Source: a virus (lineage: Duplodnaviria; Caudoviricetes). Taken from it: 64,000 nucleotides of DNA. Position 1 is the first letter of the stretch, and every line of letters begins with the position of its first letter. A program made the position numbers and the translations under genes. Below the pieces are notes generated by a model. It did not search any database, was not told the origin of the DNA, and saw only the letters and a list, made by a program, of their open reading frames with translations. The DNA lies in IMG/VR virus record IMGVR_UViG_3300031857_000014; one strand, 5' to 3'. Shown one piece after another: positions 49,038 through 62,384 of the stretch.

Positions 49038-49127
49038 TAAGATTTTTTATTTTTAAAATTTATTTCCTATATTTTTATTAGTTCTTTGAAATGCCTGGGT
49101 GGTGAAATAGGTATACACGCAAGACTT

Positions 49128-49822
49128 TAATCTTTTTTGTGTTCTGTTTATACTTATAATATATGAATATAAAATACACAAAAGAATTTTTGGAACCAAT
49201 AGTTAAGGAATGTGGTTCAATTAGACAAGTTTTAATAAAACTAGGGTTGAGAGAAGCAGGAGGAAATTATGAAAATATCAAAACTAGAATTCAATTATTC
49301 GGTATTGATACATCACATTTTCACGGAATGGTTTGGAATAAAGGTAAAGAGTGGTCAAAAGTTAAGGATTTAACTCCTAAATTAATAGAACACTCAACTT
49401 ACACTACAGGATTACCAACCTCAACAAATAGATTGAGAAAACAATTATTAAAACTTGGATATAAAAACCACATTTGTGAATTATGTGAATTAACTGAATG
49501 GAGAGGAGAAAAAATCCCATTGGAGTTACATCACATAAATGGTAATAGGTTTGATAATAGGATAGAAAACTTACAATTTTTATGTCCGAATTGTCACTCA
49601 TTTACTGACAACTATAGGAAACGAAAAAATTGAGTGCACAAAGAGAAATCTTTGATGTAGAACTCCGTAAATTCGGTGAACCCTTTAAGATGGGAATACC
49701 GAGCCAAACTCGTAAGAGAAGGTGTAGAGACTAGACACGGAGCACCTAAATCGTAAGATATGGTGAAGGTATAGTCCAGACCACAAACAACTTTAGTTGG
49801 TAGTGAAAACTATAGTGGTAAG
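49128..49822 (+). mobile_element. group I intron (IC3-like, tRNA-Leu type) with an ORF in the P1 loop
   Basis: IGS GAGT (49632-49635) pairs with exon ACTT with a terminal U.G. P AAATTCGGTGAA, Q GGGAATACCGAGCC, R GTAGAGACTAGAC, S ATAGTCC; P3 CTCCGT/ACGGAG; terminal G at 49822. Confidence 0.92.
49163..49633 (+). CDS. intron-encoded HNH homing endonuclease
   Basis: CELC...LELHHINGNRFDNRIENLQFLCPNCH. Its TGA stop overlaps the intron IGS. Confidence 0.92.
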   Translation: MNIKYTKEFLEPIVKECGSIRQVLIKLGLREAGGNYENIKTRIQLFGIDTSHFHGMVWNKGKEWSKVKDLTPKLIEHSTYTTGLPTSTNRLRKQLLKLGYKNHICELCELTEWRGEKIPLELHHINGNRFDNRIENLQFLCPNCHSFTDNYRKRKN

Positions 49823-49913
49823 AAAATCTTGTGACCAGCAATGGTCGTGCGGGTTCGACCCCCGCCCCAGGTACAAACACTATTGTTCTTTGACATATAA
49901 GGAGAAACAAATT

Positions 49914-51657: not shown

Positions 51658-51729
51658 GCCGCCATGGTCAAGGGGTTAAGACGTGTCCCTTTCACGGACA
51701 AATCACGGGTTCGATTCCCGTTGGTGGTA
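51658..51729 (+). tRNA. trnE: tRNA-Glu(UUC)
   Basis: TGTCC-CTTTCAC-GGACA, ACGGG-TTCGATT-CCCGT. Confidence 0.92.
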
Positions 51730-51735
51730 CTTTCC

Positions 51736-51835
51736 GGTGAGCAGAAGACGAAAGACAACACATCGTATATGTGGCCACATTGCGATTGAATCAAGTAGAC
51801 ATACAGAAAGGATTAGCTACCCTTTCCGCTCACCA
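51736..51835 (+). ncRNA. unassigned 100-nt RNA closed by a 7-bp acceptor-like stem
   Basis: GGTGAGC/GCTCACC+A, internal GAAAGG...CCTTTC hairpin, no TTCRA loop. Confidence 0.5.
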
Positions 51836-51839
51836 ATAT

Positions 51840-51913
51840 GGACCTATAGCTCAGCAGGTTAGAGCAATTGACTCATAATCAATAGGTGCTTGGTTCGAAC
51901 CCAAGTGGGTCCA
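51840..51913 (+). tRNA. tRNA with CAU anticodon, Ile2 (lysidine type) or elongator Met
   Basis: GGACCTA/TGGGTCC, ATTGA-CTCATAA-TCAAT. G1-C72 paired, so not an initiator; the acceptor resembles Ile2 tRNAs. Confidence 0.9.
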
Positions 51914-51949
51914 CAACTTTTTAAGTATTTATTTAAAAAGAAGGTCATT

Positions 51950-52411
51950 ATGAAAAAATTCACAACACTTCATGGTGTACCAATTGATAATCTTATTGGT
52001 TACATAAAAGAGTATATTTCAACTAAAGAAAATGTTGAAATTTTAATTGGTTCAGATTCACAATGTTTCAGAAATACAAAAACAACATATGGTGTTGTAA
52101 TTGCACTTTATTCAAAAGGAAAAGGGTGTCATGTATTATGTAGTAAAGAAACAACTCCAATTGAAAGAAATACTGCGACAAGATTATTAACGGAAGTTTG
52201 GAAATCAGTAGAAATTGCTGAGTATCTTAGAAGCAACGATTTACCAAAACCAACATGGATTGATATTGACTTGAATCCGGATCCAAGATATAAATCAAAT
52301 CAAGTATTAAGACAAGCAATCGGATTAGTTGAAGGTATGGGTTATAATGTTAGATATAAACATAATGGTGCAATTATGACCTATGCTGCTAACAATCTTG
52401 TTAGATTGTGA
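51950..52411 (+). CDS. RNase H-like YkuK-family protein
   Basis: ILIGSDSQ, YGVVIALY..GKGCHV, RLLTEVWKSVE, IDIDLN, AANNLVR. Start at 51950. Confidence 0.8.
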   Translation: MKKFTTLHGVPIDNLIGYIKEYISTKENVEILIGSDSQCFRNTKTTYGVVIALYSKGKGCHVLCSKETTPIERNTATRLLTEVWKSVEIAEYLRSNDLPKPTWIDIDLNPDPRYKSNQVLRQAIGLVEGMGYNVRYKHNGAIMTYAANNLVRL

Positions 52412-52442
52412 ATAACATGTGGATAACTAAAACAAAAAAAAT

Positions 52443-52510
52443 TTTGTTTGTAAAAAATCCCATCGTATATTTGTGAAACAATTCGGAATTAAACCACCGA
52501 AAAAGTTCTT
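52443..52510 (+). promoter_or_regulatory. Bacteroidota sigma70-type promoter P1 with hairpin and boxA-like element
   Basis: TTTG(52443)-N19-TATATTTG(52466), TTCGG/CCGAA hairpin, AAGTTCTT. Confidence 0.75.
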
Positions 52511-52542
52511 AAAAAAAAAGTTTAAAAAAAGTTTTACAAAAA

Positions 52543-52605
52543 TTTGGTTTTTTAAAAATTCCATCGTATCTTTGTAAAACAATCGGAAACGATAAAGTTC
52601 TTTGA
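52543..52605 (+). promoter_or_regulatory. Bacteroidota sigma70-type promoter P2 with hairpin and boxA-like element
   Basis: TTTG(52543)-N20-TATCTTTG(52567), ATCG-GAAA-CGAT, AAGTTCTTTGA. Confidence 0.8.
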
Positions 52606-52609
52606 ATAA

Positions 52610-53515
52610 AAATATTATCCATTTAGGATTCACAGTTTTAATCTTCGGATTATTTCTGAAGTTCTAATAAAAGATAATTGGGCGGTCTATAGTCCATTCA
52701 CCTTCGGGTGACAGATACCTTCGGGTATTTGAAAATAAACTATGAAAGTAGTATAAAGTGACTTACTTTGGTTGAAGTAGGTTGCGGTTCTCGAAAGAGA
52801 ACTCGAGTAGACAAGCGAGATATCATTTAATCTTGAGTACTGAGGGTGACACTGTAGGGAAAGTGGTTGAATGACTTGGCGATGTGGGTCGTCAGGTTGA
52901 GGTGGGAACACCAATAAGAATAACTCGTAGAATACATGCAAGAAATAAGGTCATCCTACTTTATAATTGCGTTGTTCAATATTAGAGTTGATTTAAAACC
53001 GAAAGGTATGATGATGTACAGATGGTGCTGTTATTATCCTTAATCTTTGTCCTACCAAGGACTTGATTATGAAGTTGACTTGAAATATGGAGACAGGGAT
53101 GTTTCAGAGGGTAGTTCAGTATTTTCTCGTTCAAAAGATGGGAGAACTGGTGACGGACCACTACCTTCAAAATCCACAAACCAAAACTTTTTGATTGTAT
53201 TCAAAAATATTAAATCAATAAAGAAAAAGTGTCCGTCAGTTGTCAGAAACAGGTGACTACACAGTCGTGAGGGGTTCACGGCCACAAAGGGTCTCAAGCC
53301 CGATGTGATTTTTAAGAAAGTTCTCTAATCCCGCAAGGATGAGTTGGGGTGGCAACCTCGAAGAGCAGCAAGTATTAAGAGAGTATTTGACAACTTTAGG
53401 ATTGGTTAATCTAATTGACCGTCACTGATTGGTACTACTCAAAAGGTAGTGGATAAGGGAAGAACAAATAATGTCCCCAAGTCAATCAATAGAACTTGTA
53501 ATCTCAGAGTTTCTT
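52610..53515 (+). ncRNA. large ornate non-coding RNA (~0.9 kb), GOLLD-like candidate
   Basis: No credible CDS, higher GC, cUUCGg hairpins (52698-52711, 52715-52728), GAAA/GCAA tetraloops, and 5'/3' end pairing AAGTTCTA(52659)/TAGAACTT(53490). Adjacent to the tRNA cluster. Family assignment untested. Confidence 0.75.
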
Positions 53516-53595
53516 TTAAAAAATTTGTTTCCTAGTTTAGTAAAACTATGGTGGTGGAGATAATGACTTCTTTATGCGGTCAGCCTCAAAATATG

Positions 53596-53623
53596 AAAGG
53601 ACTAGTAAACTAGTCCTTTTTTT
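53596..53623 (+). terminator. intrinsic terminator closing the ncRNA unit
   Basis: AAAGGACTAG-TAAA-CTAGTCCTTT followed by a T-tract. Confidence 0.85.
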
Positions 53624-53711
53624 ATTATACCACTTTTTTTTACCGGAAATTTTACTTATATTTATATTCAGTTAACGATTTTGTTAACTATAAACTAAAT
53701 AAAAATAAAAT

Positions 53712-54236
53712 ATGAAAAAAACAGTTTTCTTATTAGTTGCAACAATGTTAGCATTTACAACATTGTACGCACAAAAACAATCTGACATGTTTGTTAGTGG
53801 AACAGTATCGTTCACTAAAACTACAGATGTAGACGCATCTTATCAATTAAAACCAACTATCGGTTATTTTGTTACAAACAAACTTGCTGTTGGTGTACTT
53901 GGTGAAGTATCAAAATCAAGCACAGAAGAAGTATTGAATATCGGTGCTTTCGGAAGGTATCACTTTTTAACTGTTGGTAAAAATTGTCAAGTATTCTCAC
54001 AATTGAGTTTGGCTAACAATTCTACAACAGTTGCTGGTGTAAAAACATCCGGATTTGGTGCTAATTTAGGTCTTGGTTCAAACTATTTTGTTACCAAAAG
54101 ACTCGGTCTTACTATGGATTTAACCAATCTAATTACCTATTCAAATGTTGATTCTAAATCAACAATTAATATTGGTTTTGATGGTGTGGTAAACCCATTT
54201 GCAATTCCAAAATTTGGTGTTATTTATAATTTCTAA
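53712..54236 (+). CDS. small outer-membrane beta-barrel protein (Bacteroidota type, about 8 strands)
   Basis: Signal peptide ending LYA-Q, alternating amphipathic strands (IGYFVTNKLAVGV, GSNYFVTKRLGL), C-terminal Phe (GVIYNF). Confidence 0.85.
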   Translation: MKKTVFLLVATMLAFTTLYAQKQSDMFVSGTVSFTKTTDVDASYQLKPTIGYFVTNKLAVGVLGEVSKSSTEEVLNIGAFGRYHFLTVGKNCQVFSQLSLANNSTTVAGVKTSGFGANLGLGSNYFVTKRLGLTMDLTNLITYSNVDSKSTINIGFDGVVNPFAIPKFGVIYNF

Positions 54237-54257
54237 AAAAAATAACAAATATTATTT

Positions 54258-54286
54258 AATCCCCACAATAGTGGGGATTTTTTTTT
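54258..54286 (+). terminator. intrinsic terminator
   Basis: AATCCCCAC-AATA-GTGGGGATT followed by a T-tract. Confidence 0.85.
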
Positions 54287-54390
54287 GTCTAAACTTTTTG
54301 AGATTATTTTGAATAAAATAAAAATTGGTTCAAAATTTGATATAATTAAAATATTTAATATCTTGTTAACCTATTTATAATAAAGAACAT

Positions 54391-54942
54391 ATGAAAAATA
54401 TAACATTATTTTTATTTTTTTTAATAGGTTTTTTAAGTGTGAATGCACAAACCCCTGATACTGTTTGTTATCGTTCAAATAACTCAACATATCAAGTAAC
54501 AAATACACCGGGAAACACATATACTTGGACAGTCGCGTCACCTGGTGTTATTACAGGAGGACAAGGTACAAATGTGATTACAGTTAACTGGGGTTCAGCA
54601 AATCCTGGTTTAATTACAAATGCGGTTACAGTATTTCCAACAAGTGCTGAAGGTTGCGTAGGACCAACAGTATTATTAGATGTTTTTGTTTTAAACATTA
54701 TACCTACAGTAACACCGGTAGTGTTATGTGCAGATGCTGGTTGTGTTCCTTTAATTGGTTCACCATCGGGAGGAGTTTGGAGTGGATCCGGTGTTAGTGG
54801 TAATCAGTTCTGTCCTAATTTAGTTACTGCGGGTCAATACACCATAACATACACATATAGTTTGGCTGGATGTACGTTTACAGGTACGGGTACCGCAACT
54901 GTAAATCCATTACCAACAATAAGTCCTATACAACATGATTAA
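54391..54942 (+). CDS. exported Ig/PKD-like domain protein
   Basis: Signal peptide ending VNA-Q; TYTWTV...GGQGTNVITVNW; G.PSGGVWSG.GV..F.P...G.YTITYTY. Confidence 0.8.
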   Translation: MKNITLFLFFLIGFLSVNAQTPDTVCYRSNNSTYQVTNTPGNTYTWTVASPGVITGGQGTNVITVNWGSANPGLITNAVTVFPTSAEGCVGPTVLLDVFVLNIIPTVTPVVLCADAGCVPLIGSPSGGVWSGSGVSGNQFCPNLVTAGQYTITYTYSLAGCTFTGTGTATVNPLPTISPIQHD

Positions 54943-55502
54943 TGAAATGGATATTTTGTTTAATATATGTTTTACTGGGTTATGTCACATACGGACAACA
55001 AGAAATTGAATTATGTCCAGGTAATAGAAATACATTTACCTATTGGAGTAATTCATCTACATCAAATGGGGGTTGGTTATGGTTATTAAACCTTGACACA
55101 ATCTCAATAAACAGTAGTGTTAAAATAACATATCGAGACACCGGATTTTTTTTAATTACTGTTCATTATAAAGATGAATGTGGAGAACCTATTCGTTTTT
55201 ACAGAGTAAAAGTTAAAAAATGTCCCGAATCTGCAATATTTTTTCCAAACGCCTTTACACCAAATGGGGATGGATTAAATGATGGTTGGTCACCAATACC
55301 ATTTAAAATAATTGAAATGAAATGGAATGTGTGGAATCGTTATGGTCAAAAAGTATACGAAAGTAAATACATTGAAGACAAGTGGAATGGGTTATACAAA
55401 GAAACACCACAACCAATTGGTGGATATGTTTTTCAATGTTGGTGGAAAGGAATTGATGGTAAAACTGGATATAAAAAAGGAAATTTAATATTAATAAGAT
55501 GA
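54942..55502 (+). CDS. exported protein with a T9SS type B C-terminal domain (gliding-motility-associated CTD/CHU_C)
   Basis: IFFPNAFTPNGDGLNDGW...WNRYGQKVYES...WNG...G.YVF...KGNLILIR, the hallmark type B CTD. Confidence 0.92.
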   Translation: MKWIFCLIYVLLGYVTYGQQEIELCPGNRNTFTYWSNSSTSNGGWLWLLNLDTISINSSVKITYRDTGFFLITVHYKDECGEPIRFYRVKVKKCPESAIFFPNAFTPNGDGLNDGWSPIPFKIIEMKWNVWNRYGQKVYESKYIEDKWNGLYKETPQPIGGYVFQCWWKGIDGKTGYKKGNLILIR

Positions 55503-55645
55503 AAAAATATATAACACGAGCAATATTTTTAATTATTATTTTTTTCTTAGTGATGGTGTTTTCTGGATGTACAAAATATTATTCACCTGAAAAATATGCT
55601 AACCCAAAAAGAAAATATGAGGTAGAAAGGAGAAAAGTATATTAA
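55499..55645 (+). CDS. 48-aa lipoprotein, not in the ORF track
   Basis: Hand translation MKKYITRAIFLIIIFFLVMVFSG-CTKYYSPEKY...; lipobox FSG-C; fills the gap between coupled genes. Confidence 0.7.
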   Translation: MKKYITRAIFLIIIFFLVMVFSGCTKYYSPEKYANPKRKYEVERRKVY

Positions 55646-55646
55646 A

Positions 55647-57017
55647 ATGAGACAAATTATCACATTATTATTTACAATATTTTCAATTGCAGGTTATTCT
55701 CAATGTGGTAATACTGATTTTGAAACAGGGACATTTACTGGTTGGTCCGGTAAATTAGGAACTTGTTGTCCAATTAATCTTCCAAATAATGGTATTGTAA
55801 ATGGGAGACAAACAATAATGACACAAGGAATTGATCCTCACTCATGCGGTGGTTTAAGAACTGTTTATCAAGGTACATATTCCGCTAGATTAGGTAATGA
55901 TAGAATTGGTGCACAAGCTGAAGGGTTGTCATATACATTAACAATAACACCAGCATCAACAATAATAAGGTATGCGTATGCTGTTATATTTCAAGATCCG
56001 AACCACGCAACTGCAGACCAACCCCGGTTTCAATCGAGAGTTAGATTAGCAAATGGTTCGATAATACCTTGTACTGATTATACTGTTACCGCAGCATCAG
56101 ATTTACCTGGATTTCAATATTGCTCACCAACACCACCTGATACGACATTTATCGCGTGGAGAGATTGGACTGAAGTTGCTGTTGATTTAAGTGCATATGT
56201 TGGACAAACAGTTACACTTGAATTTGAAACTGGTGATTGTAGATTAAGAGGTCATTATGGTTATGCGTATATCGACGCAGTACAATGTGGTCAATCAAAT
56301 ACACATGTGACTTATTGTGAAGGTGATGACTCATTAACTATAAATGCAATGGGTGGATTTGCAAATTATGAATGGGAAACAGGTGATACCACACAACAAA
56401 TAACAATAAATCCAAACTTATATGATACTATAACGTGTACTGTAACAACATTTTTAGGTTGTGAATTAACATTATATTATATATTAGACATGGCACCAGG
56501 GTACCCTAATTTTATTTACAGTCCAAATTGTTCGGGATTAGTTCAATTCACAAATACAAGTACCGCATCATATACACCAATAAATTATTTGTGGACATTT
56601 CCTGATGGTACAACATCAACTTTAGAAAACCCAACACACATTTTTAGTCCAGGTATTCATAGTGTTAACTTACAAATTTCTTCTAATTTAGGTTGTGGTA
56701 GAGATACCACTATTTTGATAGAAATATATCCAACACCTGTACCTAATTTTTCCGCACCTAATGTTTGTTTAGGTGTTCCAACACCGTTTACAAATTTATC
56801 AACTCAAACCCTTGGGTATCCGGTAAGTTATTTGTGGGGTTTTGGTGATAATTCCACATCAACAAATACAAATCCAATTCACCTTTATAATAACTCTGGC
56901 ACATATTTGGTTACATTATATGCTGCAACAACAGGAACAGGATGTATGGATAGTATAACAGGACAAATAACTGTTTATCAAAATCCAATCATTATTGGTC
57001 CAATAATATCAAATTAA
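55647..57017 (+). CDS. exported protein with an N-terminal beta-sandwich domain and two PKD domains
   Basis: Signal peptide ending GYS-Q; DFETGTFTGW, SARLGN, YAYAVIFQDP.H; YLWTFPDGTTSTLENPTH.F and YLWGFGD..ST.TNPIH.Y..SGTY.V.L. Confidence 0.85.
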   Translation: MRQIITLLFTIFSIAGYSQCGNTDFETGTFTGWSGKLGTCCPINLPNNGIVNGRQTIMTQGIDPHSCGGLRTVYQGTYSARLGNDRIGAQAEGLSYTLTITPASTIIRYAYAVIFQDPNHATADQPRFQSRVRLANGSIIPCTDYTVTAASDLPGFQYCSPTPPDTTFIAWRDWTEVAVDLSAYVGQTVTLEFETGDCRLRGHYGYAYIDAVQCGQSNTHVTYCEGDDSLTINAMGGFANYEWETGDTTQQITINPNLYDTITCTVTTFLGCELTLYYILDMAPGYPNFIYSPNCSGLVQFTNTSTASYTPINYLWTFPDGTTSTLENPTHIFSPGIHSVNLQISSNLGCGRDTTILIEIYPTPVPNFSAPNVCLGVPTPFTNLSTQTLGYPVSYLWGFGDNSTSTNTNPIHLYNNSGTYLVTLYAATTGTGCMDSITGQITVYQNPIIIGPIISN

Positions 57018-58015
57018 TGAAACAATACTTAATAATTTTCTTTTTACTGTTTTCTAACTTTTTATATTCTCAATGTAAAGATGTGTATAGTGTTCAAATA
57101 GATTGTCCAACAGAACAGGATAGTTTAGTACTATACAATAACGCATTGAAAGTGTATGATTTTTATGATAATAATAAATCATATGAAAAAACAAGAACAA
57201 GAGAATTAACATCAGATTTTGATAAAAGAAACATATTTGAAGATTTAACAACGGCTAGAAGATTATTTTTTGTTATAAGAAGAGAAGTCGCTAAAATAAA
57301 AGAAACAGAAAAAAAATTTATTGCGGGTAAAACAAGCCCAAAATATGTTGACATTAATTACAAAGAATATTATCAAGAAGTTGATGAATATAGATTCTAT
57401 CAAAGAGAAATAGAAAGTCAAATAGTGAATAAATCCGCACCAATTGCAATTTATGATAATAGAATTGCACCAATTATTGTAAATGAATATCACTGTATTG
57501 ACTCAACAAGCCCTTATTTTGGTGATTTAGTAAACATACCATTATATATTCCTGTGACTGTTAAACCTTTTATGTTATTAACAGAATCAGAGTTAATTAT
57601 TCGTAATGATATTTTAAAAAAAATTGACCCTAACTACATACCAAAAAATATGAACAAACCACTAATAGATACAATGACTATTAGAGAAACAATAACCAAA
57701 ATAACAAATACTGAAGACAATAAAAAAAGAGTAATTATTAAAGATACAGTAATTAAAAAAGACAATATAAGAATAAAACAACCAGAAATACAATTAAGTT
57801 GTACATTCCCTATTCCTGTTTATGCATTTAATCCTATGAGAGGGGGAACGTTGGTTGGATTTGTTTGCGATAAATATTTTATAAAAATAAAACCATCACA
57901 ATACAACTATTATGCTGTACCTAAATGGGCTCAAGACATATTAGAAAATAAAAAAGATTTAAATAATCTCCTAAAAAACAAATTTGGTGATTATTTATTA
58001 GGCGTGATAGAATAA
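57017..58015 (+). CDS. exported hypothetical protein
   Basis: Signal peptide ending LYS-Q; 332 aa. Confidence 0.75.
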   Translation: MKQYLIIFFLLFSNFLYSQCKDVYSVQIDCPTEQDSLVLYNNALKVYDFYDNNKSYEKTRTRELTSDFDKRNIFEDLTTARRLFFVIRREVAKIKETEKKFIAGKTSPKYVDINYKEYYQEVDEYRFYQREIESQIVNKSAPIAIYDNRIAPIIVNEYHCIDSTSPYFGDLVNIPLYIPVTVKPFMLLTESELIIRNDILKKIDPNYIPKNMNKPLIDTMTIRETITKITNTEDNKKRVIIKDTVIKKDNIRIKQPEIQLSCTFPIPVYAFNPMRGGTLVGFVCDKYFIKIKPSQYNYYAVPKWAQDILENKKDLNNLLKNKFGDYLLGVIE

Positions 58016-58025
58016 AATAAAAATT

Positions 58026-60305
58026 ATGAAAAAAATATCAATCATTTTAATTTTAACAATAATCTTTTCTTCAGCAAATGCAAGAAAATTTTACTTTAGT
58101 AGTTCTACAGGTAGTGATACCTACACTACAACTCAAGCACAAAATCAATCAACTCCATGGGCGAGTCTTAAAAAAATGGAACAAGTGTCACGAACTGCGA
58201 ATGTTTTTCAAGCGGGTGACACATTAGCATTTAAACGTGGTGATGTTTTTGCGAACGGGTACATCAATACTTTTGCAAGTATGCAATGGAGAAATGATGG
58301 TGGTACTTATTGGATTGCACCAAGTGGTACTCCAGATAGACCTATTGTAATCACAAATTACGGAGACCAAACTTTACCATTACCAAATTGGTTATGGCCA
58401 ACAACCACATCTCCTGTTAACGCTTGGCCAAACACAAGGCCGGCAAGACATGTTGTTTGTTTTACAGGTGTTGCGAATATAGTGATTGATGGTATTCAAT
58501 CCAATGATTTCAGATTTCCCGAGAATGATAAAATTACACCCGCATATACAGGTGGATGGTTAATTGGAGAATGGACAAATTCTAGAACTGTCAATGGAGT
58601 TTATGTTCAAGGTGCGAATAACCCCAATAATAGAAAATATATGGTTACAAACTTCAAGGTTCGTAACTGTGTGTTTAATAACATTCAATATGGTTTTGGT
58701 GGGATAGCTGCAATTAATAGCGAATTTAGTTATAATAGAATAACAAATTTAAAGGCTACGACAGATACTGCTGGTGTGAATGATGTGATGGCAGGTGCTT
58801 TCGAAGCTTTAAGTGGGTTTTATGTCAATATACATCACAACTATATAAAAGGGGCTTGGGCTAAAAGTGGACGAATAAGTTCAACAAATGGACTCGGCGG
58901 TGTTGGTTTTGATATTCTTAACTTAAAAAATAGTAAAATTGCATATAATACAGTGATTGATTGTTCGGGTATGTGGGAAATTGGTAATCTGGACAGATTA
59001 GACTCTACTTCAGGTGCACAATACGATACCTTCGCATTTAACAAAGTAATTAACTGTGGTAATTTCGGTTATTTACATGGTTCGACAGGATCATTTATTG
59101 GTAATAATCATCATTTATCTTTTTGGAACAATGTAATAATATCTAATAACAAAGACAGACAAAATGGATTAGGTTTTGGAAAAGACGTTTATGGGGATGG
59201 ACAAGGATTTGCACCAGGGACACCTAATGCTTGGTGGATGTGTAGAAACCCTTTGAGTACATGGAATCAATCACCATATATCCCTTCAACAACTACAACA
59301 GCTGGTTCAAACATAGTTACCGTGAGTAATGTAACAGGAATACGAATAGGTAGTGTAGCATTCGCAAACAATGATAGTCTTTTAGGTACAACATATCAAA
59401 CAGTTACTGTAACATCAATAAACGGAAATCAACTCACATTGAGTGTAAACTGTACTCGTTCTACTATCACTACGAATGTGGCTTATTACCTACCTGTATC
59501 TGATACCACATGGAGTACTCCACTCAATTCATCATTTGCTAATTACGGTGGTACAAGAGCTTTTATTCAGTATGCTTCTGACAATACCACTTTTGGTTCA
59601 TATATTGATACAATGATTGATAGTAGAAATAATATCATGTATTGGACCACAGGTATACAAGGAGTTTATGATAGAACAAGATTCAAAAGAAATAGTAATA
59701 TATACACACCTATTGGTGGTGCTAGATTTACAACTTCGGTCGGTAGTCCATTAAGAACTTCTGAAAGAGTTATCACAACCAAACTATTCAGGGACACTAC
59801 CGCCTTATATCCCGAGGATTGGGACTTACATCCTGTGGATACAAGTTACGCTTATGCGACAGGGTCACCAACACCAGGGTTTACCGTAGACTTTGAAGGT
59901 AAACCAATAACGACACCTTTTATCGGATTATTTTCAAAGTTAAATGTCGTTACTATAGATACTTGTAGATTCACATATGGACAGTGGAGTTCTTGTAATG
60001 GAAGTTTTCAAACAAGACCATATACCTCATTTCCCTCGGGTTGTGTTGGCGTCCCACCACTTGATAGTATTCAAAGAAGTTGTGTCGTTGTTTCACCGGT
60101 TAGATATTTTTATTATAGTCCAAGTAGAGTTAGTATTAGAATTGAATCATCTACTTCAGGAGTAATTACAATTACAAATACTTTAGGTCAAGTAATTCGT
60201 AATATAAATTATTCTGCAGGAGGTTCTTGGAAAAGTGTTAATTTTTTACCTTCCGGAACATATACTGCAAGAACTTATGATAAATCATTTTTGTTTATAA
60301 GATGA
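58026..60305 (+). CDS. exported right-handed beta-helix protein with a T9SS type A C-terminal domain
   Basis: Signal peptide; YFSSSTGSD...PWASL...GDTLAFKRG (beta-helix N-cap); Asn ladders; C-terminal ITNTLGQVI...FLPSGTY. Confidence 0.8.
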   Translation: MKKISIILILTIIFSSANARKFYFSSSTGSDTYTTTQAQNQSTPWASLKKMEQVSRTANVFQAGDTLAFKRGDVFANGYINTFASMQWRNDGGTYWIAPSGTPDRPIVITNYGDQTLPLPNWLWPTTTSPVNAWPNTRPARHVVCFTGVANIVIDGIQSNDFRFPENDKITPAYTGGWLIGEWTNSRTVNGVYVQGANNPNNRKYMVTNFKVRNCVFNNIQYGFGGIAAINSEFSYNRITNLKATTDTAGVNDVMAGAFEALSGFYVNIHHNYIKGAWAKSGRISSTNGLGGVGFDILNLKNSKIAYNTVIDCSGMWEIGNLDRLDSTSGAQYDTFAFNKVINCGNFGYLHGSTGSFIGNNHHLSFWNNVIISNNKDRQNGLGFGKDVYGDGQGFAPGTPNAWWMCRNPLSTWNQSPYIPSTTTTAGSNIVTVSNVTGIRIGSVAFANNDSLLGTTYQTVTVTSINGNQLTLSVNCTRSTITTNVAYYLPVSDTTWSTPLNSSFANYGGTRAFIQYASDNTTFGSYIDTMIDSRNNIMYWTTGIQGVYDRTRFKRNSNIYTPIGGARFTTSVGSPLRTSERVITTKLFRDTTALYPEDWDLHPVDTSYAYATGSPTPGFTVDFEGKPITTPFIGLFSKLNVVTIDTCRFTYGQWSSCNGSFQTRPYTSFPSGCVGVPPLDSIQRSCVVVSPVRYFYYSPSRVSIRIESSTSGVITITNTLGQVIRNINYSAGGSWKSVNFLPSGTYTARTYDKSFLFIR

Positions 60306-60946
60306 GAATAATTTTAATGTTATTAATTTTATTTAGTCCTAATTTACAGGTTTATCAAGAAAATCTTGTAACAGAAAATGAACATGTTTTAATACGAATT
60401 TTTAAATATGAACAAGAACTTGAAGTTTGGGTGAATAACTCAGAAAAAAAAGAATACTATTTGTATAAAAAGTATTCCATTTGTAAAATAAGTGGAACTC
60501 TCGGACCAAAAAGAAAAGAAGGTGATTATCAAGTTCCAGAAGGGTTTTATTACATAAACGATTTTAACCCTAAAAGTAAATATAAAAAAAGTTTAGGTAT
60601 AAATTATCCAAATGAATCTGATAAAATACTAAGTACATATAAAAAATTAGGTGGAAACATATACATACATGGTGATTGTGTTTCAGTTGGGTGTATTGCT
60701 ATTGGTAATAAATTTATTGAAGAGTTATTTTTAATTTGTATAAGAACAAAAAATCCGATTCCGGTTCACATTTTCCCAATTAACTTTAACAATAATAAAT
60801 CTAAAAATTCATTACTATATTACAATTATGTTTATGAAAACAAAAATTTTGAAACTAATTTAAAAAATGGTTTTAACTTTTTTGAAGAAAAAAAATATCC
60901 GCCAAAAATAAAAGTAGACAGTTTGGGATATTACCAATTTTTTTAG
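60302..60946 (+). CDS. L,D-transpeptidase (YkuD) family protein, YafK/DpaA-like
   Basis: GPKRKEGDYQVPEGFY, SLGINYPN, GGNIYIHGDCVSVGC (HxxxxSxGC catalytic motif). Confidence 0.88.
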   Translation: MRIILMLLILFSPNLQVYQENLVTENEHVLIRIFKYEQELEVWVNNSEKKEYYLYKKYSICKISGTLGPKRKEGDYQVPEGFYYINDFNPKSKYKKSLGINYPNESDKILSTYKKLGGNIYIHGDCVSVGCIAIGNKFIEELFLICIRTKNPIPVHIFPINFNNNKSKNSLLYYNYVYENKNFETNLKNGFNFFEEKKYPPKIKVDSLGYYQFF

Positions 60947-61922: not shown

Positions 61923-61966
61923 TTTCAAATTATTTTATTATCTTTGTATTAGTTCTTTAAAATTAT

Positions 61967-62384
61967 GGGCCTGCCTTGGTTTTGACGGACATTTGTATGG
62001 TAAATGGGCATGTAGTCGGATGTCATCTACGACTTAAATCTACGGTGGTAAAATTCAAACGGCAACGTTTACAACAACATGGAAATTGCAGGTCTTCTTG
62101 CAACTTCTAAAGTAGCTGCTTAATTAAGTACCTACTCTCGGGTCGGTTAGGACATATAACCTAGGAACAGAAGTCCATGAGGTTTAACACCTACCACGTG
62201 ATTCAGTTCAGAAAAGTGTGTTGGAGCAAATCAGACGGCTCCTTAAATCCGGTTTGGGGATTGTTGGAAGTAGTTATCTAAATCTATAACTTCCTATTTG
62301 TTGATTATGAATAATCAAATAAACATGTAGTCCATTTATTGTTCGGTGTTTCGGACAGCGGTTCGACTCCGCTCAGGTCCACCA
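61967..62384 (+). ncRNA. ssrA: tmRNA; predicted tag (A)GNVYNNMEIAGLLATSKVAA at 62061-62123
   Basis: GGGCCTG/CAGGTCC-ACCA acceptor with G3.U70, TTGACGG near the 5' end, GCGG-TTCGACT-CCGC T arm, internal ORF ending AA-stop. Confidence 0.95.

Follow-up and report, generated by a model that had tools for sequence, protein, structure and literature searches.

The phage DNA analyzed here, a stretch of 64,000 nucleotides (nt) from IMG/VR record IMGVR_UViG_3300031857_000014 that we call the window, very probably holds at 52443-53627 a gene, complete in itself, for a GOLLD RNA of the canonical two-domain form, borne by a phage of Bacteroidota and headed by a leader in the style of ribosomal RNA (rRNA) operons. 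An earlier note, made from the sequence alone, had proposed GOLLD on the grounds of size, phage origin, and adjacency to transfer RNA (tRNA) genes, and the family model agreed with it over its whole length: RF02032, the Rfam model of GOLLD, matched 53107-53510 on the plus strand with 326.2 bits (gathering cut-off 150; E = 1e-92), untruncated across model positions 1-416 of 416. We regard membership in the GOLLD family as practically certain. The note had foreseen that a strong GOLLD match would confirm the feature while reducing its novelty, and with the match found, the option of a new class falls away. The RNA is a further member of a known family, and as an RNA this copy brings nothing new. 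New are the test of the leader across about 50 loci, its comparison with host 16S leaders, its position relative to a solved GOLLD RNA, and the evidence from RNA libraries.

Two domains of a GOLLD RNA

The Rfam models compared with 52300-53750 gave, at an E value of at most 1, only a chance small RNA (sRNA) match on the terminator besides GOLLD. Among the families that the note had listed for checking, GOLLD was recovered, whereas ROOL, OLE, and the group I and group II introns gave no covariance-model match in this interval. ROOL is known from the literature as another large phage RNA that lies near tRNAs and forms RNA-only cages, but its sequence and fold are unrelated to those of GOLLD.

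As RF02032 represents the conserved 3' domain only, the 5' half was tested separately. BLASTN gave unbroken alignments of 52732-53520 with at least 25 viral loci, at 72-80% identity. A scan of viral contigs with a degenerate GOLLD pattern gave 119 loci, about 86 of which were confirmed as GOLLD by nhmmer; a window-like 5' domain was present in 61 of the confirmed loci, and the chance pattern matches (about one-third) were kept as negative controls. For covariation analysis, we aligned 40 nonredundant cores of the lake type of GOLLD, 774-837 nt in length, that of the window being the longest. The RNAalifold consensus of these cores contained 204 base pairs, 151 of them with compensatory double changes, and 97.3% of the cells in the consensus fold were paired, compared with 37-44% after sliding the 3' partners by one or two columns. 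The consensus pairs were spread over both domains: 111 belonged to the 5' domain, 82 of them with compensatory changes, and 89 to the 3' domain, 68 of them with such changes. The core thus delimited spans 52678-53514 (837 nt) and consists of a 5' domain at 52678-53106, placed by BLASTN, the consensus fold, and the start of the env-38 RNA, whose cap domain it represents by homology, and the 3' domain at 53107-53510 described by RF02032. Both domains are on the plus strand, as are the promoters, leader elements, trailer, terminator, tRNA-Met, and YkuK-like gene described below.

The closest comparison is with GOLLD env-38 (PDB 9MEE; Kretsch et al. 2025, PMC12286853). The T7 construct used for the cryo-electron microscopy of the env-38 cage starts with ATGGCCGCTATGGTCGTC (Supplementary Table 4, PMC12286853), which corresponds to window positions 52680-52697, and the opening hairpin GGCCG-UAUGGUC is common to env-38 and the 5' domain of the window. 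The two RNAs are alike in the full-length 3' domain, the covarying 5' domain, and the same start; both are about 830 nt long, phage-borne, and of freshwater origin, and both lie downstream of tRNA-Met in a tRNA cluster (for env-38, PMC12286853). The RNA of the window differs from env-38 only by a longer trailer and by a private insertion of about 35 nt at 52697-52731, which adds two near-identical CCUUCGGG (UUCG) hairpins to the 5' domain. The insertion is absent from the other 39 aligned cores but is present in metatranscriptome contigs.

These results leave very little probability for a divergent GOLLD or an ornate RNA of a new class, the options raised in the note. As the Rfam model covers the 3' half only, novelty of the 5' half was conceivable at first, and the core carries its own 35-nt insertion and, at 837 nt, exceeds the other 39 in length. 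However, the score of the 3' domain across the entire model is over double the cut-off of the family, the 5' domain shares one covarying structure with the at least 25 loci to which it aligns and opens with the env-38 hairpin, and the Rfam search at E ≤ 1 brought up no further family apart from the chance sRNA. Both domains are canonical, and the reading as a new class is refuted by the Rfam match, the BLASTN alignment, and the covariation. Least probable of all is a protein-coding stretch or a chance spacer poor in open reading frames (ORFs), which could draw on short ORFs of 65-84 amino acids on both strands but is refuted by compensatory changes at 151 of 204 consensus pairs, by the E value of the covariance match, and by RNA contigs that are confined to the RNA body. 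The description of 52443-53623 as noncoding and rich in tetraloops held up, UUCG and GNRA hairpins being abundant there.

Freshwater and riverine metagenomes contain the stretch or a nearly identical sequence, as do six metatranscriptome runs of freshwater origin, which belong to five studies. We placed the contigs of four of the metatranscriptome studies on window positions 51700-54300 and found them on 52631-53526 only, with zero-mismatch pieces including 53023-53279, 53083-53292, and 52684-52764; being assembled, the contigs give no ends, strand, or level. No contig covered the YkuK-like gene, either promoter, the leader up to 52630, the trailer (53527-53700), the terminator, or the gene of the outer-membrane protein downstream, while tRNA-Met was covered by a low-depth contig in one run. 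As contaminating DNA would also have covered the flanks, the body of the gene appears to occur as RNA, well above its neighbors.

Promoters and leader upstream of the core

TAnnTTTG with an upstream TTTG is the promoter consensus of Bacteroidota. A direct repeat of 46 nt, with copies at 52437-52482 and 52538-52583 that lie 101 nt apart and share 87% identity, represents the two near-duplicate promoters that had been reported for the region; both copies read TTTG-N19/20-TAnnTTTG, according to inspection of the sequence and a pattern scan. Promoter P1 (52443-52473) has its -33 TTTG at 52443-52446 and the -7 box TATATTTG at 52466-52473, and P2 (52543-52574) has TTTG at 52543-52546, a spacer of 20 nt, and the -7 box TATCTTTG at 52567-52574. 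Promoters at 40 related GOLLD loci could be aligned with the P2 module. A scan for E. coli-type promoters called neither P1 nor P2, because Bacteroidota promoters follow another consensus. A third copy of the promoter repeat, 61% identical, is found at 53504-53549, where it overlaps the 3' end of GOLLD and reads TAGTTTAG instead of TAnnTTTG; a chance likeness or a decayed copy is the probable explanation.

Downstream of P1 and P2 alike come a hairpin and a boxA-like motif, as the note had stated, although the two motifs differ in strength. The P1 leader (52482-52511) consists of the hairpin TTCGG/CCGAA at 52482-52501 and a weak boxA-like GTTCTTA at 52505-52511, the full match AAGTTCTTAAAAAA at 52503 scoring 10.3 bits with a position-weight matrix. 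After P2, the minimum-energy fold has a boxB-like hairpin AUCG-GAAA-CGAU at 52582-52593, and the strong boxA-like element AAGTTCTTTGAATA (19.2 bits) follows in the conserved position at 52595-52608, with its core GTTCTTTGA at 52597-52605. The leader is thus ordered as -7 box, 7-8 nt, hairpin, 3 nt, and motif, and the GOLLD core begins 72 nt further on. Between the two lies a variable spacer stem-loop at 52614-52677, identified from fold and alignment and closed by the pairs AUUAUC/GAUAAU.

The same arrangement recurs among the relatives. A strict form of the motif, G[TC]TCTTT[GA]A, was present at a distance of 780-1150 nt upstream of the 3' marker in 62 of the 98 pattern-hit loci with enough upstream DNA, although roughly a third of the 98 are chance matches. 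Over 1.13 Mb, 64 of the 122 plus-strand occurrences of this strict motif fell into two adjacent 100-nt bins, while the whole minus strand had 31. With a position-weight matrix built from GOLLD loci, the motif was recovered in 52 of 52 window-type loci having at least 1300 nt of upstream sequence, GTTCTTTGA(A) being at a fixed place in all of them, and in 7 of 14 loci with other 5' domains, compared with 1 of 29 chance-pattern controls. The aligned leaders show a fixed order of an A-rich tract, TTG(AC), TAACTTTG, TAAAACAAA, the hairpin, 2-4 nt, and (A/C)GTTCTTTGAAA. The stem of the hairpin varies in sequence but keeps its pairing (TCGGA/TCCGA, TCAGGA/TCCTGA, TTCGG/CCGAA, and AUCG/CGAU). On the 3' side of the motif, the core follows either after a variable stem-loop of 60-110 nt or within about 10 nt; the latter is the case in loci L090, L115, L040, and L014, which have no counterpart of the spacer stem-loop of the window, and the first two of these are its closest relatives.

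Two observations bear on what kind of element the motif is. First, the solved env-38 RNA begins, with its residue 1, downstream of the motif, which is therefore not part of the known GOLLD fold. Second, in three loci (L020, L087, and L001, the last from the 635-kb phage LR745206, positions 2281-2913 of the locus) the hairpin-motif module stands directly 3' of a tRNA with no -7 box between them, and in L001 a further promoter-hairpin-boxA module heads the same tRNA unit. As the module follows a tRNA without a promoter in these loci, it appears to be an RNA-level element that travels with GOLLD rather than a part of the promoter. We found no report connecting GOLLD with boxA, antitermination, or NusB among the papers searched, the Nature paper on GOLLD included, although the supplement of the 2009 discovery paper could mention the motif.

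For comparison with the hosts, we took 16S genes together with the DNA preceding them, both from a sample of Bacteroidota and from four named genomes of this phylum. A GOLLD pattern scan of genome contigs gave 120 matches, nearly all of them due to chance and three confirmed by nhmmer, and the chance matches in named Bacteroidota genomes served to fetch 16S leaders. The Bacteroidota 16S leaders have between one and three TAnnTTTG promoters, arranged in tandem; after each of them come a hairpin and then (A/G)GTTCTTTGAAA, which lies 85-160 nt before the 16S gene and matches the boxA-like element of the window, AAGTTCTTTGAA. With the matrix derived from GOLLD, the sense strands of 31 distinct 16S leaders averaged 12.0 bits, compared with 0.1 bits for the antisense strands and -1.0 bits for shuffled sequences, and 22 of the 31 scored above the 99th percentile of the shuffles. 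The form GTTCTTTGA is found in the GOLLD leaders and in most of the other sampled 16S leaders, while the three named Flavobacteriales genomes have the variants GTTCATTGA or GTTCATTAA. The earlier description of the RNA as expressed like an rRNA operon thereby gains comparative support from a conserved promoter-hairpin-GTTCTTTGAA module that matches Bacteroidota 16S leaders.

In comparison with known rRNA operon leaders (PMC10250234), the GOLLD leader shares the tandem promoters and the promoter-proximal hairpin followed by a boxA-type sequence, its motif being the same as in Bacteroidota 16S leaders, and the module found after a tRNA in some relatives resembles the boxA of rRNA spacers. The design of the leader is, as far as its sequence tells, that of host rRNA leaders except for boxC and the leader-trailer helix, which were looked for and not found, and the product is a phage RNA. 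The promoters also differ in the segment after the -7 box, which is the AT-rich TAAAACAAA in GOLLD and the GC-rich CACCCGC in many of the sampled host 16S promoters (L242-L280). The nut sites of phage lambda, consisting of boxA and boxB and served by protein N, are similar in that a phage transcript carries a host boxA for Nus factors. However, the order in GOLLD is hairpin and then boxA, as in rRNA, and the client is a noncoding RNA gene and not an early operon. No N-like protein is known here, although no search aimed at one was made.

The gene ends with a trailer at 53515-53594, delimited by the alignment and longer than in most relatives, and an intrinsic terminator at 53595-53627 (11-bp stem, 4-nt loop, and T run), which a terminator scan placed at 53595-53620 and which agrees with the strong terminator of the note. 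An equivalent terminator is present 30-90 nt past the core in most relatives. In contrast, the note's claim that the ends of the region pair was rejected. The minimum-energy fold of 52580-53625 joins the ends by just five A-U pairs, for which it uses the U tail of the terminator, and a 12-nt complementarity between 52736-52747 and 53528-53539 is outside this fold and has a 3' arm that is not conserved in the relatives. Across 40 loci, the energies of leader-trailer duplexes were no better than those with shuffled trailers (mean z of +0.36, none below -2, and -0.18 for the window), and no complement of the boxA-like motif was seen by eye in the trailers. The minimum-energy fold also pairs about 20 nt of the long trailer (53561-53587) with a conserved part of the 5' domain (52842-52869); a trailer resembling that of the window was found in L014 only, and the pairing could be an alternative fold or due to chance.

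Phage, host, and neighboring genes

The window contains a T4-type major capsid protein of the gp23 family (E = 8e-73), a gp20-type portal protein (E = 6e-78), and a large terminase subunit, and ARAGORN identified four tRNA genes 0.8-2.4 kb upstream of the GOLLD core. These genes confirm the phage origin and the tRNA adjacency that had been claimed for the region. The last gene of the tRNA cluster is tRNA-Met (CAU) at 51840-51914 (ARAGORN; Rfam tRNA, 68 bits). Downstream of GOLLD, we found genes for an outer-membrane beta-barrel protein, PKD proteins, and a protein with the CHU_C signal of the type IX secretion system, the last of which points to a Bacteroidota host. Judging from these type IX CHU_C and PKD cargo proteins and the TAnnTTTG promoters, the host of this T4-like phage is a member of Bacteroidota. 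The genes are part of an envelope-directed run at 53712-60946, the first four ORFs of which encode the outer-membrane beta-barrel, PKD domains, and CHU_C; phage cargo for the type IX secretion system of the host is unusual.

In the phage collection, similar records came from two uncultured phages only, of 635 and 642 kb, each of which has GOLLD beside tRNAs. The closest relatives, L090 and L115, are viral contigs of 98 and 334 kb. GOLLD is thus found both in T4-like phages and in phages of more than 600 kb of Bacteroidota.

Further copies of the boxA-like motif are found near other stable RNA genes of the window. A tRNA-Leu(UAA) gene at 49081-49875, missed by ARAGORN, is split by a group I intron with an HNH endonuclease ORF (49163-49633) into exon 1 at about 49094-49133 and exon 2 at about 49827-49875; the Rfam model Intron_gpI matched 49570-49799 with 44.3 bits, below its cut-off of 50 (E = 7e-10). 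Directly before the 5' end of this tRNA stands the boxA-like motif, in the context TATATTTT-TATTAGTTCTTTGAAAT, and an extra GTTCTTTGA is found at 49885-49893, 10 nt past the 3' end of the tRNA; an ATG with an AAGGAG-like site follows about 20 nt later. The phage transfer-messenger RNA (tmRNA) at 61967-62384 (Rfam, 102 bits; the whole element at 61939-62384) is preceded by the -7 box TATCTTTG and has TATTAGTTCTTTAAAATTAT immediately before its 5' end, which is the motif of the GOLLD leader without the hairpin. The motif does not precede every phage tRNA, and this idea was rejected: it was found at 4 of 153 tRNAs.

Antitermination as the candidate role of the leader

In rRNA operons, boxA binds NusB-S10. 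The element is best known from E. coli, where boxA is necessary and sufficient for the formation of the rRNA antitermination complex (PMC10250234). This complex of NusB-S10 (NusE), NusA, NusG, SuhB, and S4 is resistant to Rho and may chaperone RNA folding (PMC10250234). The gammaproteobacterial (E. coli) boxA consensus is GYTCTTTAANA (PMC5725501), from which the GOLLD motif differs at a single position, having G for A at position 8.

From its sequence and setting, the leader of the window probably acts as a Nus-dependent boxA, and the path from promoter to cage may then be as follows. The host RNA polymerase would start at P2 and probably also at P1, the two forming a tandem of host-type promoters, and the first 20-30 nt of the transcript would form the small hairpin and then present GTTCTTTGAA, as happens after host rRNA promoters. 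The hairpin-boxA leader would load NusB-S10 and other Nus factors, and the modified polymerase, fast and Rho-resistant, could then make the untranslated 0.84-kb RNA in full and in quantity, the RNA folding as it emerges. Transcription would stop at the intrinsic terminator, the leader and the trailer would probably be trimmed, and the mature RNA may assemble into a cage like that of env-38, which consists of 14 subunits of RNA only (PMC12286853).

The main alternative, although less likely, is that GTTCTTTGAA is a signal for processing or stability, such as an RNase site or one for 5' maturation, or the site of another factor, in which case the likeness to rRNA leaders would reflect shared maturation. 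In its favor, the RNA contigs begin at 52631, about 26 nt past the motif, with none over the motif itself; this pattern fits a removal of the leader, but the contigs cannot define RNA ends. The absence of an accompanying leader-trailer helix also agrees with a processing signal, and so does the placing of the same motif directly before the mature 5' end both in the tmRNA (61952) and in the tRNA-Leu with the intron (49081), where processing is no less plausible a role than antitermination. Against it stand the difference of one position only from the E. coli boxA, the placement after a promoter-proximal hairpin as in rRNA leaders, where the motif lies 85-160 nt before 16S, and the recurrence between a tRNA and GOLLD, as of boxA in rRNA spacers. 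We consider these likenesses to favor the Nus-dependent boxA.

The note had also named a possible partner or processing enzyme, the YkuK-like protein with an RNase H-like fold encoded immediately upstream. The gene is there (51950-52411; 153 amino acids; PF04308, Pfam E = 3.8e-16), but a dedicated role in GOLLD now seems quite improbable. It ends 32 nt before the promoter module in the same orientation, an arrangement kept in L090 and L115, the closest relatives, with 74% amino acid identity, and homologs are found somewhere in three huge GOLLD phages. However, tblastn detected a homolog within the available DNA of only 7 of the 119 loci hit by the pattern, about 86 of which are confirmed as GOLLD, and it was in the same upstream position in just those two relatives. 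In LR745206, LR756502, and the 483-kb viral record G097 the homolog is more than 90 kb away from GOLLD, and a whole-record search of G096, a 321-kb GOLLD phage rated by IMG/VR as 100% complete, gave no match. The YkuK-like gene appears to be a neighbor within one lineage and not a conserved partner, and as GOLLD has promoters of its own, its expression does not depend on read-through from this gene.

Several points weigh against the reading of the locus as a GOLLD gene under an antitermination leader. The boxA of Bacteroidota is itself predicted from conservation. The matrix was derived from the GOLLD loci themselves, and the count of 52 of 52 is therefore partly circular, whereas the strict-regex count, the fixed position of the motif, and the control loci are not. 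The related GOLLD leaders all have GTTCTTTGA and none has the Flavobacteriales variant GTTCATTGA, so a matching of motif variants between host and phage could not be shown; the pattern is a weak hint that the hosts of GOLLD phages may not be Flavobacteriales. A second match to the motif of at least 8 bits within 900 nt upstream was found in only 11 of 50 relatives, and the P1 motif of the window is degenerate (GTTCTTA, 10.3 bits). The boxC-type helix between leader and trailer has no support across the 40 loci, some of the RNA contigs, beyond their lack of ends, strand, and level, come from related variants, and the assembly into a cage is predicted by homology with env-38 only.

GOLLD is among the largest bacterial and phage RNAs of unknown function and has recently been shown to form an RNA-only cage. 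To this, the present analysis adds the expression signals and a module of host rRNA leaders, hairpin and GTTCTTTGAA, just upstream of the solved RNA. We are inclined, if only slightly, to go further and see the GOLLD genes of Bacteroidota phages as regular clients of host rRNA antitermination, the leader being the NusB-S10 loading site needed for making and folding the cage RNA and forming, together with the motifs at tmRNA and tRNA-Leu, a "stable-RNA regulon" of the phage. If the module is a boxA, it would explain how a long untranslated phage RNA can be abundant without loss to Rho, and it would tie the synthesis of GOLLD to the machinery that chaperones the folding of rRNA. The wider reading as a regulon would also give a new testable handle on the biology of GOLLD and may be connected with the ribosomes reported to be pulled down with it, and the leader marks the natural 5' context for expressing GOLLD in cells.

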